DNA of 19,482 nt from the NCBI GenBank assembly GCA_039802605.1, contig JBDRWW010000017.1, forward strand, positions 1-19,482. Direction: 5' to 3'. The notes beneath the pieces were generated by a model, which saw only the letters and a program-made list of their open reading frames with translations, was not told where the DNA came from and made no database searches. Below are positions 2-15,442 of the stretch, in pieces (within the stretch, counting starts at the first letter, position 1; the number at the start of each line of letters is the position of its first letter). The translations under genes were made by a program, and so were the position numbers. Source of the DNA: a candidate division WOR-3 bacterium. Its GTDB lineage: Bacteria; Hydrothermota; Hydrothermia; LBFQ01.

Positions 2-622
2 AGTTCAAGCGTTTATTGGAATTTGGGACCCCCTTTTTATTTTGATACAACCCTTAAAACAAACCTTTACTCGGTAAAGGCGAGTAGAAACCTATCCGTT
101 CAGATATTCGGCAATGTTTATGATAGGGGTAATCGCTTTGGGTATATATCCCCCGTTATAGATTTACCCTATAACATGTCCCTTGTGGGGTTTTATTTGT
201 TTGGGGATTTTGCCGGGCAAACCGTTAAGGTTTTTGCAAGGAGGTTTTATTCCGGCTCTTGGGATAGATGGGTGGAAATAAACGACAGTGTTGTTAATTC
301 TCCTTATTTATCGTCTGGCAACAAGTTTCAGTATAGGATTGATGTTATTACAAACTTTGCGGGGACATCAAGGTTTAAAATAGACAGCGTAAAATTGGAA
401 TTTTTAAATACGCTTGTTATTGGGGAAGGTGAGTGCAATTTCAAAATGGGGGGTTATAAAAACGGTATAAGATTATACGGGGATGGGGAGTTTATGGTAT
501 TTGATGTTGCCGGCAGAATTGTGTCAAAAGGTAAGGGCGATATAAACCTTAAAAAGGGGATTTATTGGATTTTCTTTAAAGGTGAGGGTTGTTCAAATGT
601 CAAAAGGGTAATCGTAAAATAG
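2..622 (+). CDS. Secreted protein with T9SS (Por) type-A C-terminal sorting domain, 5'-truncated by the window edge
   Basis: The frame is open from position 2 (SSSVYWNLGPP...). The C-terminus FMVFDVAGRIV...LKKGIYWI...VKRVIVK matches the T9SS CTD pattern (DxxGR...GxY...K). Confidence 0.7.
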   Translation, partial: SSSVYWNLGPPFYFDTTLKTNLYSVKASRNLSVQIFGNVYDRGNRFGYISPVIDLPYNMSLVGFYLFGDFAGQTVKVFARRFYSGSWDRWVEINDSVVNSPYLSSGNKFQYRIDVITNFAGTSRFKIDSVKLEFLNTLVIGEGECNFKMGGYKNGIRLYGDGEFMVFDVAGRIVSKGKGDINLKKGIYWIFFKGEGCSNVKRVIVK

Positions 623-8237: not shown

Positions 8238-8795
8238 TTATTTGAAAACCTCCTCTAAATCAATTTCTAAACCCTCCAAAACTTTACTTTTAACTTTACC
8301 CTTGCCTTCCGCAAAGGAGTAAAGTTCATAATTTCCTTTATCATCCAAAACCCACACCTCTATCGCCTTTTCATAGGGATAAACAATCCAACACTCCTTA
8401 ACCCCAAACTCCTGATAAATCCCCTTTTTGACAACCGTATCCCTCCTCGTTGTTGATGGCGAAATTATCTCTATCACCAAGTCCGGCAAACCAAACATAC
8501 GGCCTTCCTTTATGTTTTTTAAACTCCCCTTTGAAATATACACTATATCCGGTTGAACCACAACGGTTTTGGATAATATAACATCAAAAGGTGCGGGAAT
8601 TACCTCACCCAACGATTCCCCACTTTCCACAAATTTAACCAAAAGAATTAGCAGCCTTTTCAGGATTTTCTGATGTTCAAAGTTTGGTGCGGGCATTTCT
8701 ACCAACCTCCCGTTAATAACCTCATAGCGCTTATCGTCTTCAAGTTTCAAATAATCCTCATAGGTCCAAATCCTTTCCTTAACCATCTCCTTCAT
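8238..8795 (-). CDS. Uma2 family (DUF820) PD-(D/E)XK endonuclease, copy B
   Basis: WTYEDY...RYEVINGRL...HQ...VQPDIVY...PDLVIEIISPST...K..IY..FGVKE.WIV. Confidence 0.92.
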   Translation of the reverse strand: MKEMVKERIWTYEDYLKLEDDKRYEVINGRLVEMPAPNFEHQKILKRLLILLVKFVESGESLGEVIPAPFDVILSKTVVVQPDIVYISKGSLKNIKEGRMFGLPDLVIEIISPSTTRRDTVVKKGIYQEFGVKECWIVYPYEKAIEVWVLDDKGNYELYSFAEGKGKVKSKVLEGLEIDLEEVFK

Positions 8796-9346
8796 CCGAA
8801 CACCTCCTTTAAATCAACCTCTAAGCCTTCCAAAACCTTGCTTTTAACTTTCCCCTCTTTTTCTGCAAAGGAGTAAATTTCATAATTTCCTTTATCATCC
8901 AAAACCCATACCTCTATCGCCTTTTCTTCGGGATAAACAATCCAATACTCCTTAACGCCAAAATTTTCATATATCCCCTTCTTGACAACCGTATCCCTCC
9001 TAATCGTTGATGGCGAAACTATTTCTACAACCAAATCCGGAGAGCCCATTATAGCCTTCTCCCCTATTACGCCTAGTCTTTCCTTTGAAATATAAACTAT
9101 ATCGGGCTGCAATACAACATTGTCATCCAACACTACATCTAAAGGGGATGGTAAAACTTCCCCTTTATTTTTTACTTTCACAAACTCCCTTATAAGCGTA
9201 GCGAGTTCCATTAATATGCGCTGATGCCAAGGGGTAGGAGATGGCATTTCCATTAACCTCCCTTTGATAACCTCATATCGTTCTTCATCTTCTAATTTCA
9301 AATAATCCTCATATGTCCAAATCCTTTCCTTAACGATTCCCTTCAT
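8792..9346 (-). CDS. Uma2 family (DUF820) PD-(D/E)XK endonuclease, copy A
   Basis: Same motifs (LQPDIVY, PDLVVEIVSPST, GVKEYWIV). ATGA overlap with copy B and a strong SD AAGGAGGTG. Confidence 0.92.
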   Translation of the reverse strand: MKGIVKERIWTYEDYLKLEDEERYEVIKGRLMEMPSPTPWHQRILMELATLIREFVKVKNKGEVLPSPLDVVLDDNVVLQPDIVYISKERLGVIGEKAIMGSPDLVVEIVSPSTIRRDTVVKKGIYENFGVKEYWIVYPEEKAIEVWVLDDKGNYEIYSFAEKEGKVKSKVLEGLEVDLKEVFG

Positions 9347-9375: not shown

Positions 9376-9417
9376 ACTTTTTAAAAGCCAAATCGGGTAC
9401 GGTTATGTACAACACAA

Positions 9418-9449
9418 ATTCTAAGGTGGAAAACTATCGCCCTTATAAT
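9418..9449. promoter_or_regulatory. Divergent -10 boxes: TAGAAT (- strand, 9418-9423, toward Uma2) and TATAAT (+ strand, 9444-9449, tRNA promoter)
   Basis: Both hexamers are preceded by CCT. The TATAAT lies 10 nt upstream of tRNA position 1. Confidence 0.55.
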
Positions 9450-9459
9450 ACCCACTTCT

Positions 9460-9534
9460 GCCCCCATCGTCTAGCCAGGTCCAGGACGCGTGGTTCTCAG
9501 CCACGAAACCCGGGTTCAAATCCCGGTGGGGGCG
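9460..9534 (+). tRNA. tRNA-Glu (anticodon CTC), CCA not encoded
   Basis: Acceptor stem GCCCCCA/TGGGGGC, anticodon arm CGTGG-TTCTCAG-CCACG (CTC at 9496-9498), T arm CCGGG-TTCAAAT-CCCGG and discriminator G9534. Confidence 0.96.
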
Positions 9535-9536
9535 TT

Positions 9537-10985
9537 TTGCTTGAAAAAGTTTTAAGGGATTATGAGGGTTTTCGAGAGGAAATACTAAGGGAAAGCTATC
9601 TACTAGGTGCCGGTTTAAAGGAAAAAGCCGAATACGATTCAATATTTCAAAGATATGCCGAGTTATTCACTTTGGAAACGGTGGGGAAGGTTATAAAGGA
9701 GAAAAACAATTTACCCGAAGATGCACCAAGCGAGGAATTTGAGGCCTTTGATAGGGTAATTTTTGCTTTGTTGGAAAACTTTTTATTTCTAAAAACCGTA
9801 AAGGATATTCAAAAACTTCAAGAGTTGGAAATTTCAAAAACCTTGGATTTTAACGGCAAAAGAATACCTTTCAGAATGTTGGCCAATATAATTGAAAGGG
9901 AAGAAAGCAGGGATATGAGGAGGTCTCTAAGCGAAAGGGCCATACCTATAATTGAGGAATTGAGCAAATATAAGGTTGAAATAGCGAGGAAGAGGTTAAA
10001 CATAATTAGGAAAGAGTTCGGATACCCAAGCATATTATCCTATGAAAGCGACAGGTTGAATGAAGATATAAAGGGTTATGCAAATTCTTTATCGGGTTTT
10101 TTAAAGGAAACGGAAAGGGAGTATAGGGATTTGGCCGGGTGGGTTTTTAAGGAATTCTTGGGGTTGGATTGGGGTGAGGTTCAGACATACGATATAAACT
10201 TCCTTTTATCCGGTTATCATTTCCGGGATTTTAAAACGGATGATTACAAGTATATTTTGGACGAAACATTAAAAGGCATGGGTTTAAACCTGCAAGAAAT
10301 AAAAAATCTAAAAATAGACGATGAGAATAGGCCTACCAAATCCCCAAGGGCCTTTTGCGCCCCAATAAGGATACCCGATGAGGTTATCGTGGTTATAAAG
10401 CCTTCCGGATACTTCAAGGATATATCCACACTTTTCCACGAGATGGGGCACGCTTTACACTTTGCGCATACCGATAAGGGTTTGCCTGCAATTTACAGAT
10501 TAATAGGCAGGTCTGGAACATCGGAGGTTTTCGCCTTTAACCTTCAATATATTACCGATTCAAAACCTTGGATTGAAAGGTTTTTTGGGAAAAACGAAAG
10601 ATTGGAAAGTTTTGTGAATTACAGAAAATTCGCATATTTATATTTGAGGCGGAGATATGCGGCCAAGGTCGTATATGAAACCAGGCTGTTTTCCGGGGAT
10701 AATTGGGAAGACATAGGCCCAAAGTTATATTCACAAATACTTACGGATGCCACGGGTGTATTTCACCCCCCGTATAACTATTTTTGGGATTTGGATTTCG
10801 GTTTTTACAGCGTTGATTACTCACAGGCTTGGGAAGTCGAATACGCTTTAAGGGAATATTTGAAGGGTGAGTTTGGTGATGATTGGTATTTTAACGGAGA
10901 GAGTGGAGAATTTTTGAAGGGTTTGTGGGGTTTGGGGCTCAGGTATTCCCCCCTTCAACTCGCAAAAAAGTTAAGGCTTTGGTAG
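9537..10985 (+). CDS. Gluzincin zinc metallopeptidase (M3/oligoendopeptidase F-like)
   Basis: LFHEMGHALH (HExxH), downstream SEVFA third ligand and RPTKSPRAFC. The start was moved to the TTG at 9537 because the 9405 extension runs through the tRNA. Confidence 0.8.
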   Translation: MLEKVLRDYEGFREEILRESYLLGAGLKEKAEYDSIFQRYAELFTLETVGKVIKEKNNLPEDAPSEEFEAFDRVIFALLENFLFLKTVKDIQKLQELEISKTLDFNGKRIPFRMLANIIEREESRDMRRSLSERAIPIIEELSKYKVEIARKRLNIIRKEFGYPSILSYESDRLNEDIKGYANSLSGFLKETEREYRDLAGWVFKEFLGLDWGEVQTYDINFLLSGYHFRDFKTDDYKYILDETLKGMGLNLQEIKNLKIDDENRPTKSPRAFCAPIRIPDEVIVVIKPSGYFKDISTLFHEMGHALHFAHTDKGLPAIYRLIGRSGTSEVFAFNLQYITDSKPWIERFFGKNERLESFVNYRKFAYLYLRRRYAAKVVYETRLFSGDNWEDIGPKLYSQILTDATGVFHPPYNYFWDLDFGFYSVDYSQAWEVEYALREYLKGEFGDDWYFNGESGEFLKGLWGLGLRYSPLQLAKKLRLW

Positions 10986-13955: not shown

Positions 13956-14003
13956 CAACGGGTATTATAAGAGGGGAAGATTTATCTGTGGGAATTTTTC
14001 GCC

Positions 14004-14032
14004 TTGAAATTATAACCTTACAACCTTAAAAT
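14004..14032 (+). promoter_or_regulatory. Near-consensus sigma70 promoter TTGAAA-17-TAAAAT
   Basis: -35 at 14004-14009, -10 at 14027-14032, and the ATG at 14041 follows 8 nt later with no SD. Confidence 0.65.
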
Positions 14033-14040
14033 ACCCACCG

Positions 14041-14292
14041 ATGGAGAGGAGGAAATTTTTAAAGCTACTTGCGCTGTTGGGTATTGGATTTTTGCCCTTT
14101 ACAAAACTCTCCGCCGGTAGGGAAACCCTAATACTCAACTCTACGGGCTATAAGGTTTTGAAAATGCACGGGATGGGTTTAACCCCCGAGGAAATAGCGA
14201 GAAAACTAACGCAAGAATACGAGGTTGATTACGAAACCGCTTATAGGGATGTTTTGGATTTCTTAAAGGAGGTTAAGGGGTTTAAACTTTAA
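14041..14292 (+). CDS. PqqD/RRE-family small protein with an N-terminal twin-arginine-like signal
   Basis: LNSTG...T.EEIARKL.QEYEVD.ETA..DV.DFL.E is the PqqD helical signature. The N-terminus is MERRKFLKLLALLGIG. Confidence 0.75.
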   Translation: MERRKFLKLLALLGIGFLPFTKLSAGRETLILNSTGYKVLKMHGMGLTPEEIARKLTQEYEVDYETAYRDVLDFLKEVKGFKL

Positions 14293-14960
14293 TGACCGTT
14301 ATCTCCATTAGTGATGTTTATAAGTCTTACAACGGTTTGGAAGTTTTAAAAGGGGTTAATTTACGGGTTAATAAAGGGGATTTTATAATAATATTCGGTG
14401 AAATAGGGGCGGGCAAGAGTACCCTTATAAGGATGATGTACTTTCAGGAATTCCCCGATAAAGGTTCCGTTGAGGTTTTGGGGTTATCTTCGGATGAGGC
14501 TAAGAAAAAAAAGAATAAAGTTCAGGAAATAAGGAAAAGGATAGGGGTTATAACCCAAGAGCCGGTTTTCCTAAACGAGATGACCTGTTTGGAAAACATA
14601 ACCTTTGTTTTGGAATCGTTGGGCTTTAATAAAAAATTGGCGGAGAATAGGGCAAAGGAAGCCTTAGAGAGGGTGGGTATGGCGGATTATATGAACAAGT
14701 ACCCTTATGAGCTTTCCGCGGGACAGAAACAGAAAATTTCAATAGCAAGGGCAATATCAAGGGATCCCATTATCCTTTTGGCGGACGATCCGACTTTGGG
14801 ATTGGATGATAAATCCACTTATGATATTGAGCATTTATTCCTGTCGTTAAACGAAATGGGTGCAACCATAGTATGGGGGGCAAACCGTATTCCGCAAACC
14901 ATTGGGAAAATATTAAAGGTTTATCATCTACAAGGTGGTTTGTTGGCAAGTATTAGATGA
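14292..14960 (+). CDS. FtsE/LolD-like ABC ATP-binding protein with degenerate catalytic motifs
   Basis: Walker A GEIGAGKST, Q-loop RKRIGVITQ, signature LSAGQKQ, Walker B LLADDP, and FtsE-like NEMGATIV. Confidence 0.8.
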   Translation: MTVISISDVYKSYNGLEVLKGVNLRVNKGDFIIIFGEIGAGKSTLIRMMYFQEFPDKGSVEVLGLSSDEAKKKKNKVQEIRKRIGVITQEPVFLNEMTCLENITFVLESLGFNKKLAENRAKEALERVGMADYMNKYPYELSAGQKQKISIARAISRDPIILLADDPTLGLDDKSTYDIEHLFLSLNEMGATIVWGANRIPQTIGKILKVYHLQGGLLASIR

Positions 14961-15442
14961 ATAGATTTCTAATACTTTTACTCCTTTCGGGGTGCAGTAA
15001 GGTGGTTTTTGAGCATAGGTGTAAGGATATTGATACATTAAAGGTGTTTGAGGATAGCGCGGTTATAAACCTTCGGGATAGATGTTTTTATGTGGAAATA
15101 GGTGAAGGGAAAAGTTTAAAGGATATATCCGTAGATTTGGGTAAGGTGGTTAATTACGGGAATGTGGAGGGTATAGAGCTAGGGGTAGGGGAGATAAAAA
15201 ACTATGGGTACATACAACGGATAAATTTGGGAATAGGGGACTTTGATAATCTCGGTAAGGCAGATAGTGTTGGTATAGGCATTGGTAAAACGGTTAACAG
15301 GGGTGTTATGGAAAAGGTGTCCATAGGTATAGGTGAAGTGGAAAATTATGGTAAGATTTTAAAGGAAGTTGAGGTGGGCGTAGGGAGAATTAAGGACAAT
15401 GGGGAAATATCGGGAAAAAGAAAGGTGGGCTTGGGTTTATAA
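14957..15442 (+). CDS. Small lipoprotein with 16-aa tandem repeats (predicted beta-solenoid)
   Basis: Signal MNRFLILLLLSGC followed by six repeats of [IV]x[LIV]G[IV]GxxxNxG. Confidence 0.65.
   Translation: MNRFLILLLLSGCSKVVFEHRCKDIDTLKVFEDSAVINLRDRCFYVEIGEGKSLKDISVDLGKVVNYGNVEGIELGVGEIKNYGYIQRINLGIGDFDNLGKADSVGIGIGKTVNRGVMEKVSIGIGEVENYGKILKEVEVGVGRIKDNGEISGKRKVGLGL

Follow-up and report, generated by a model that had tools for sequence, protein, structure and literature searches.

The window analyzed here is a stretch of 19,482 nucleotides (nt) from contig JBDRWW010000017.1 of a candidate division WOR-3 bacterium, which belongs to an uncultured bacterial lineage from a hot spring or sediment. 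At 14041-14292(+) it carries a gene for a protein of 83 amino acids (aa) that begins MERRKFLKLLALLGIGFLPFTKLSAGRETLILNSTGYKV and that joins a predicted twin-arginine translocation (Tat) signal to a shortened PqqD domain, the fold also known as the recognition element (RRE) for peptides that are made by ribosomes and modified after translation (RiPPs). The open reading frame (ORF) cannot be extended upstream, being blocked by an in-frame TGA at 14005-14007, and the divergent upstream neighbor starts at 13958, which leaves an intergenic gap of 82 nt. Genes for an ABC ATPase and a predicted lipoprotein follow directly downstream (Table 1). An initial annotation had described the protein as an orphan PqqD/RRE domain whose first beta-strands are replaced by a twin-arginine signal peptide.

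Table 1. Coordinates of the Tat-PqqD gene, its predicted parts and the genes downstream of it.
Feature	Position	Strand	Description
Whole ORF	14041..14292	+	83 aa plus stop codon; pre-protein of the putative Tat-signal mini-PqqD, window type ('group A')
Promoter-like site TTGAAA-17-TAAAAT	14004..14032	+	10/12 positions match; end lies 9 nt upstream of the ATG
Twin-arginine motif RRKFLK, residues 3-8	14047..14064	+	R3, R4, F6 and L7 invariant in 16 rows
Uncharged h-region LLALLGIGFLPFT, residues 9-21	14065..14103	+	Uncharged over 12-17 residues in every one of the 32 family members
c-region KLSA, residues 22-25	14104..14115	+	Candidate signal-peptidase site L-x-A; cleavage would leave a 58-aa mature protein
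Putative mini-RRE, residues 26-83	14116..14289	+	beta3-equivalent TLILN plus three PqqD-fold helices
FtsE-like ABC ATPase, 222 aa	14292..14960	+	Start overlaps the Tat-PqqD stop codon by 1 nt
Predicted lipoprotein (LLSGC), 161 aa	14957..15442	+	Third gene of the apparent operon; repeated G-x-G...N-x-G units

A twin-arginine motif ahead of a shortened PqqD domain

The protein matches the Pfam PqqD family (PF05402) with an E-value of 2.9e-10 and 40.7 bits, above the gathering score of 23.4. Residues 30-79 (14128-14277) align with positions 13-62 of the 67 in the profile, and the first 12 positions, which correspond to strands beta1 and beta2, have no counterpart in the window protein. An AlphaFold2 model built from a 16-row family alignment contains helices at residues 34-44, 49-60 and 64-80 with predicted local distance difference test (pLDDT) values above 90, and neither beta1 nor beta2. 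Residues 1-28 of the model have a pLDDT below 50 and are not packed against the domain. The residues equivalent to beta3 are aligned, yet the strand itself is not drawn. The profile search and the model thus bear out three statements of the initial annotation, namely that this is a PqqD/RRE domain, that its three helices are present and that its first strands are missing.

Comparison of the model against known structures with Foldseek gave as its best match TfuB1 (6jx3_B), with a root-mean-square deviation (rmsd) of 0.7 Å over 49 columns, followed by TbiB1 (5v1u), with an rmsd of 1.1 Å over 52 columns. Both matches have a probability of 1.00 and E-values of only about 0.015, because the domain is small. 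PqqD itself (3g2b, 5sxy) is a weaker match and appears at ranks 6-7. A profile of the 16-member family likewise finds TfuB1 (3e-9, from chain residue 37) and TbiB1 (7.5e-8, from residue 24), and since the alignments begin at these residues, the first two strands of both proteins have no counterpart here. What is found is therefore not a complete winged helix-turn-helix of three strands and three helices: the helices are present, beta1-beta2 is missing and the solved RREs remain unmatched over their first 23-36 residues.

All 16 aligned family members match lasso PqqD models at E<=1. The window protein itself scores 35.2 bits against NCBIfam lasso_PqqD_Strm, where the cut-off is 70, and it falls below both cut-offs of the lasso B1 chaperone models NF033530/NF033536 (35.2 vs 70 and 19.9 vs 80, respectively) as well as that of TIGR03859 (PqqD; 13.6 bits vs 46). 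A third PqqD gene in the same genome, on contig C3, encodes the normal cytoplasmic form with all three strands. Judged from the alignments and the model, the 58-residue domain is best described as a predicted 'mini-RRE', which has lost strands 1 and 2 and retains strand 3 together with the three helices.

Tat signals follow the consensus (S/T)RRxFLK, and ERRKFLK at residues 2-8 of the window protein corresponds to it near the N-terminus. We examined this segment across 32 unique full-length family sequences, having excluded seven representatives, six of which start in or after the hydrophobic stretch and appear to be short gene calls, while one is partial. The arginine pair is conserved in 31 of the 32 and reads RG in the other (P0032, a paralogue variant), in line with the Tat-like motif that the initial annotation had placed in front of the domain. 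Every one of the 32 begins M-x, continues with R[R/G]xFL[K/R/M] and the uncharged stretch, and then goes directly to a K or R. The sequence of the hydrophobic core varies among homologues and its character is kept, as in signal peptides. Between the h-region and beta3, the weak three-letter motif L-x-A is present in 29 of the 32, with A-x-A in one and L-x-G/S in two. AlphaFold2 models the h-region with low confidence and draws a helix at residues 4-13. The NCBIfam TAT_signal model TIGR01409 matches 12 of the 16 aligned members at E<=1, the best at 4.3e-4.

The genome (1.65 Mb in 23 contigs, 90% complete) also encodes the machinery that such a signal would engage: TatC is found at 193.3 bits and two TatA/B/E genes at 71.8 and 70.5 bits. 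TatC is likewise present in 12/12 genomes of family f1, that is, those carrying the gene family. A six-frame scan of the genome for xRRxFLK near the start of an ORF returned three ORFs only, a Rieske protein (171 aa, Pfam Rieske 51.4 bits, motif KRREFLK) and two PqqD paralogues, one of them the window protein. A looser Tat pattern raised the total to 14 rows, and the additions were merely ordinary membrane or internal segments. On these sequence grounds, the Tat motif of the window protein is more than a chance occurrence.

Relatives, paralogues and genomic neighborhood

Relatives were drawn from the genomes of related species, from 1.84 billion cluster representatives searched exhaustively with HMMER, among which there were 20 matches at E<=1e-3, and from a profile search of a 5.8-billion-cluster collection, which gave 162. 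In the latter, 28 clusters score 84-132 bits, after which the scores drop to 54 bits. A profile was required for this, as a word-index search with the single protein returned only itself and one 88%-identical protein. Full-length matches occur in 12/12 genomes of family f1, the family-level group of the window, which comprises two genera; 10 of these genomes have both paralogues, and the window-type (group A) gene is conserved in 10 genomes of the lineage. The other 49 of the 61 genomes yielded three matches with this query: a canonical PqqD without a Tat signal (G016), a full-length Tat form (G021) and a weak match without a Tat signal (G059). Within the family, identity is 40-90% across the two genera, with 13 invariant columns. 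Members carry the public names 'PqqD family protein' or 'PqqD family peptide modification chaperone', and their metagenome-assembled genomes are labeled Thermotogota/Thermotogae or candidate division WOR-3. Leads from the ESM Atlas were PqqD clusters of 139-147 aa with scores of 0.85-0.87, under the 0.9 level.

The second paralogue ('group B') is an 86-aa protein beginning MTRREFLK and of the same layout, encoded on contig C5 (G000:C5:27925-28167 (-), locus L003 1495-1755). The longest ORF of an LptE-like lipoprotein gene covers about 70 nt of its 3' end, as is also the case in the other genus. A domain tree (50 rows, 58 columns), in which some rows were mis-cut, gave little resolution and did not recover the paralogue groups as one clade. 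After the rows had been re-cut, a single clade of the two paralogue groups was not rejected by the approximately unbiased test (p 0.468).

A related arrangement is found in family f5 of the same class, where Tat-signal PqqD proteins occur in 3/3 genomes (P0214, P0182 and P0016; 64 genomes searched). These proteins are 104-123 aa long and consist of an RRxFLK signal, a linker and then a complete PqqD domain, for which AlphaFold2 predicts strands at residues 41-45, 48-53 and 56-60 plus three helices at a pLDDT of about 90, with the signal again at low confidence. They share with the window protein an xRRxFLK signal followed by a PqqD domain, an origin in uncultured bacteria of one class and surroundings in which RiPP genes were not found. 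They differ from it in their complete three-stranded sheet, in having only about 33% identity over the shared part and in their neighbors, which in two species of one genus are genes for L31 and a SPOR-domain protein, both downstream of the f5 gene. Because f5 carries the Tat signal on a complete PqqD domain, the Tat-PqqD combination is not confined to the shortened form, and it is the strand loss that is specific to the window's family. The initial annotation had named homologues with a normal beta-stranded N-terminus as evidence that would speak against it. Such homologues do exist, as distant Tat-bearing relatives in f5, but not within the window's own family.

Six proteins from other lineages (P0013, P0017, P0021, P0136, P0137 and P0011) are PqqD-domain proteins of 137-191 aa with lipoprotein-type or other N-terminal signals. 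The family to which they belong consists mostly of signal-less proteins of about 95-105 aa, and we do not claim that it is exported in general. Export signals on PqqD domains may nevertheless recur elsewhere.

An ATPase of 221-227 aa lies directly 3' of the group A gene in 10/10 loci, with a 1-nt overlap or a gap of a few bases, and an LptE-like lipoprotein gene lies directly after the group B gene in 7/7 loci read, so that both neighborhoods are conserved, a point the initial annotation had proposed to check. The word 'orphan' in that annotation is accordingly apt in one sense only: no RiPP partner was found nearby, but the protein is one of two paralogues that sit in conserved operons. The LptE-like protein scores 30.8 bits in locus L031 and 21.8 in the window's own genome, where the cut-off is 23; IspDF follows it in 6/7 group B loci, and the seventh stops at a contig edge.

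The ATPase matches ABC_tran at 107.5 bits. Its best NCBIfam model is FtsE (TIGR02673), at 165.5 bits and thus below the cut-off of 264.85. Its motifs are degenerate, with LSAGQ in place of LSGGQ, LADDPT (Asp for the catalytic Glu) and W-x-x-N, the H-loop His being absent; these features are invariant in 10 aligned orthologues and present also in genome G004. Orthologues score 349-433 bits in 12/12 genomes of the family, compared with at most 186 bits for the best match outside it, and the degenerate form is confined to the family-level lineage that has the Tat-PqqD genes. By contrast, the best ATPase match in the sister family has the canonical motifs (DEPT, THD), and no PqqD gene precedes it. 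The Tat-PqqD gene precedes the ATPase at 10 of the 12 ATPase loci.

Elsewhere in the genome, an FtsX-like gene (276 aa; G000:C1 locus L026 3085-3915 (+)) lies directly after ftsA-ftsZ with no ATPase adjoining, and for this reason the window ATPase may, we infer, be the FtsE of the lineage. In this order, FtsE and FtsX seem not to be linked. The window ATPase resembles FtsE in that this is its best NCBIfam match and in its similar length (222 aa), and departs from it in score, catalytic Glu, H-loop His and the LSAGQ signature. The 161-aa lipoprotein that completes the apparent operon (14957-15442) has no match in Pfam or NCBIfam, and its homologues follow the ATPase only in the window's genus (the g1 loci).

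Upstream of the group A gene, three loci of the second genus (L011, L021 and L032) have secreted-looking proteins of 430-813 aa, without a Pfam match, that end a few bases before it. The C-terminus of the window ORF at 2-622 (+) resembles these proteins, by eye only.

A Pfam scan of the 25 ORFs of the window found no RiPP maturase or precursor, although Radical SAM PF04055 as such was not searched, and this agrees with what the initial annotation had noted by inspection. The families present are housekeeping or unknown ones: UDP-glucose dehydrogenase, GatB, an acyltransferase, two Uma2 proteins, a methyltransferase, a deaminase, HMA, Era, DUF218, YceI and unknowns. In the genome, which is 90% complete, no SPASM match turned up, and no candidate cargo gene adjoins either paralogue, the upstream gaps being 82 nt for group A and about 50 nt for group B. 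A possible lasso cluster on contig C1 was rejected, since the single Transglut_core3 match there is a 460-aa lipoprotein beside a Memo-like gene. At that locus (G000:C1 locus L067 4743-7299 (-)), the Memo-like protein of 383 aa has a weak PqqD-like N-terminal domain (E 0.052), and the transglutaminase-core match of the adjoining lipoprotein is C-terminal.

As to expression, the promoter-like site upstream of the gene is one of 6 such sites in the region against 5.2 expected by chance, which is not above chance and makes it a hint only. No obvious Shine-Dalgarno sequence lies between this site (14004..14032) and the ATG, and because the site ends so close to the start codon, the mRNA may carry no leader or only a very short one. 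In two metatranscriptome runs of a single study, assembled contigs match the gene with 100% identity at 14084-14350 (depth 37.7) and 14094-14332 (depth 4.5). Further contigs, distinct from these, map to the ATPase, at 14453-14673 (depth 4.9) and 14488-14711 (depth 2.5). Depth is thus highest over the Tat-PqqD gene, and no contig covers 13700-14065, the side of the divergent upstream gene. Two raw-read runs (X7 and X8, about 3% of each examined) contained zero reads for the locus. The assembled contigs are consistent with transcription of the Tat-PqqD gene that runs into the ATPase.

Two further features of the window lie apart from this operon. A tRNA-Glu (CTC) at 9459-9535 (+) falls within the 5' end of the longest ORF, 9405-10985 (+), whose first approximately 45 codons are therefore spurious; this ORF has no Pfam match at 1e-5 and contains a HEMGH-type motif. 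At 8238-8795 (-) and 8792-9346 (-) are tandem, overlapping paralogues of the Uma2 family (putative restriction endonucleases) of 185 and 184 aa.

Proposed export of the mini-RRE and competing explanations

With moderate confidence, we favor a reading in which the window protein is a Tat-exported mini-RRE, cleaved or anchored by its N-terminus, that binds an extended peptide of an envelope protein and has a role in envelope biogenesis or division. The pre-protein would consist of a Tat signal of about 25 residues (M-E, RRKFLK, a 13-residue uncharged core and the basic KLSA) and the 58-residue mini-RRE. The small helical domain would fold in the cytoplasm, its RR motif would be recognized by TatC/TatA and the folded domain would be carried across the inner membrane, where signal peptidase would cut at L-x-A or the signal would remain as an anchor. 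Outside the cytoplasm, the exposed beta3/helix-3 face would then bind an extended peptide segment of an envelope protein, so that the mini-RRE would serve envelope biogenesis or division and not RiPP maturation.

We infer all of these elements, export, cleavage, peptide binding and the envelope role. Tat export would be the simplest account because of the invariant RRxFLK, the short uncharged core, the basic c-region, the presence of a Tat translocase and a helical cargo that should fold fast. Peptide binding is suggested by the retained beta3/helix-3 face, which holds leader peptides in solved lasso RREs. The envelope or division role is suggested by the operon partners, an FtsE-like ATPase and LptE, and by the SPOR protein near the f5 gene.

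Several observations weigh against this interpretation. Residues 2-19 of the window protein score 15.0 bits against TIGR01409, 1.7 below the cut-off of 16.7, and 4 of the 16 aligned members have no match to that model even at E<=1. The natural paralogue variant P0032, represented by three member sequences, has RG instead of RR. An n-region of just two residues is shorter than that of typical Tat signals, and the weakness of the L-x-A motif means that the predicted cleavage may not take place and that the signal may be an uncleaved anchor. The case for export as such is drawn from sequence, the periplasmic chaperone or sensor suggested by the initial annotation is conjectural, and no candidate ligand has been identified as a binding partner of the mini-RRE. 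The operon partner is an ATPase of cytoplasmic type, which in itself is no argument for a periplasmic role. Moreover, the syntenic ATPase and lipoprotein occur without a PqqD gene upstream in G001 (57% complete) and G004 (89% complete), both from the window's genus, so the pairing is frequent but not obligate. Finally, the RNA-library contigs are no proof of transcription or of a single transcript, since DNA carry-over is possible, they come from one study and the two raw-read runs were empty.

Two alternatives are, in our view, unlikely. In one, a peptide or small protein that lacks a signal would be bound in the cytoplasm by the beta3/helix-3 face of the mini-RRE and Tat would carry the pair out, making the RRE a portable export tag and not a periplasmic effector. 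The Tat system transports folded proteins and complexes, and there are established cases of small subunits with a Tat signal that escort partners without one. What the domain has retained is, moreover, the leader-peptide-binding face of TfuB1 and TbiB1, and the loss of beta1-beta2 would leave an open sheet edge that a strand of the cargo could complete. However, neither paralogue has a candidate cargo gene beside it. RiPP enzymes were found neither in the Pfam scan of the window nor, as SPASM, in the genome, where the Transglut_core3 match is no lasso protein, and both the downstream lipoprotein and LptE come with their own signal peptides.

The other alternative dispenses with export and takes the N-terminal segment as a membrane-interacting or docking helix by which the mini-RRE, remaining in the cytoplasm, is kept at the membrane's inner face or on the degenerate ATPase, for example as an ATPase adaptor replacing a permease. 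All RREs that, to our knowledge, have been characterized are cytoplasmic. Such an adaptor would fit the translational coupling between the gene and an ABC ATPase, which has no permease next to it in 10/10 group A loci, and it would also fit an ATPase that lacks the catalytic Glu and the H-loop His and looks like a switch rather than a motor. A docking helix, however, gives no reason to conserve the invariant RRxFLK, short uncharged core and basic c-region that together make up a Tat signature, and 12-17 uncharged residues are short for a membrane span. The group B paralogue and the full-length f5 form bear the same signal without an adjoining ATPase, and conversely the two genomes named above keep the ATPase without a PqqD gene.

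The initial annotation had also considered that the RRE might carry its own leader-like peptide in cis. The hydrophobic N-terminus would then be a ligand bound by the domain itself, either for autoinhibition or to take the place of the missing strands. RREs do bind extended peptides beside beta3, and a hydrophobic segment about as long as the missing strands stands in their position. The model gives this idea no support, as it leaves the N-terminus at low confidence and unpacked on the domain. The segment also lacks the alternating or charged pattern of beta1-beta2 in the canonical PqqD of the genome, and the conserved RRxFLK would be left unexplained; we consider self-binding very improbable. 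The notion of a decaying PqqD remnant, or a mis-called ORF without function, is barely credible. Its small size, incomplete fold and the RiPP context that was not found are what one might expect of a remnant, but the degree of identity and the invariant columns kept across two genera, the occurrence of two paralogues in conserved operons, the confidently modeled domain and the peak of RNA-library contig depth on the gene all speak for a maintained protein. Tat export of a mini-RRE to a role in the envelope remains the account that we prefer.

Implications and comparison with known systems

If the mini-RRE is exported, the PqqD fold would have been recruited to cell-envelope biology, and some 'orphan RRE' matches would not mark cryptic natural-product clusters. 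The 58-residue piece, with one strand and three helices, may then be a minimal functional RRE. By the strict motif scan, Tat would have only about three clients in this lineage, the mini-RRE among them, and export of the mini-RRE would help to explain why Tat is retained in a 1.65-Mb genome with just three strict-motif ORFs. A broader proposal, which we put forward as speculation and think rather doubtful, is that RREs have an unrecognized extracytoplasmic life, either as periplasmic strand-binding adaptors for FtsEX/LptDE or as portable Tat tags that escort signal-less peptides. Were the escort form true, it would be a route of peptide export that needs neither an ABC pump nor a leader protease. 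Together with the complete RRE behind a Tat signal in f5 and the lipoprotein-signal PqqD forms, the mini-RRE would then make up a general class whose members are mistaken for 'orphan chaperones' when mining centers on RiPPs.

RRE/PqqD domains count as cytoplasmic indicators of RiPP clusters, and it is in this capacity that genome-mining tools employ them. A full-text search of the literature, in which relevance was judged from titles and the beginnings of abstracts, and whose scope did not extend to subscription journals and supplements, returned no description of a Tat-signal PqqD/RRE protein. In the two RRE-Finder papers, searched by term, signal peptides are mentioned only on precursor peptides. 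Both halves of the window protein, the Tat signal and the PqqD/RRE domain, are thus of known kinds, whereas their combination, the shortened fold and the conserved non-RiPP context are without description in the literature searched.

The closest known proteins in both sequence and structure are the lasso B1 RREs TfuB1 (6jx3) and TbiB1 (5v1u), which have 33-35% identity to the window protein and share with it beta3 and the three helices. Unlike the window protein, the B1 proteins have beta1-beta2, lack a signal peptide and adjoin a B2 protease, a cyclase and a precursor; the window protein has a Tat signal, and those genes were not found around it. PqqD of pyrroloquinoline quinone biosynthesis belongs to the same Pfam family, but the window protein is truncated and signal-bearing, and its genome is without a detected SPASM/PqqE-type partner. 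With Tat signal peptides (TIGR01409), the window protein shares RRxFLK, an uncharged core that is short and rich in Gly/Ala, and a c-region of basic character. As a Tat signal it would be unusual in its two-residue n-region and in its cargo, which is a 58-residue, cofactor-less helical domain and not a redox enzyme.

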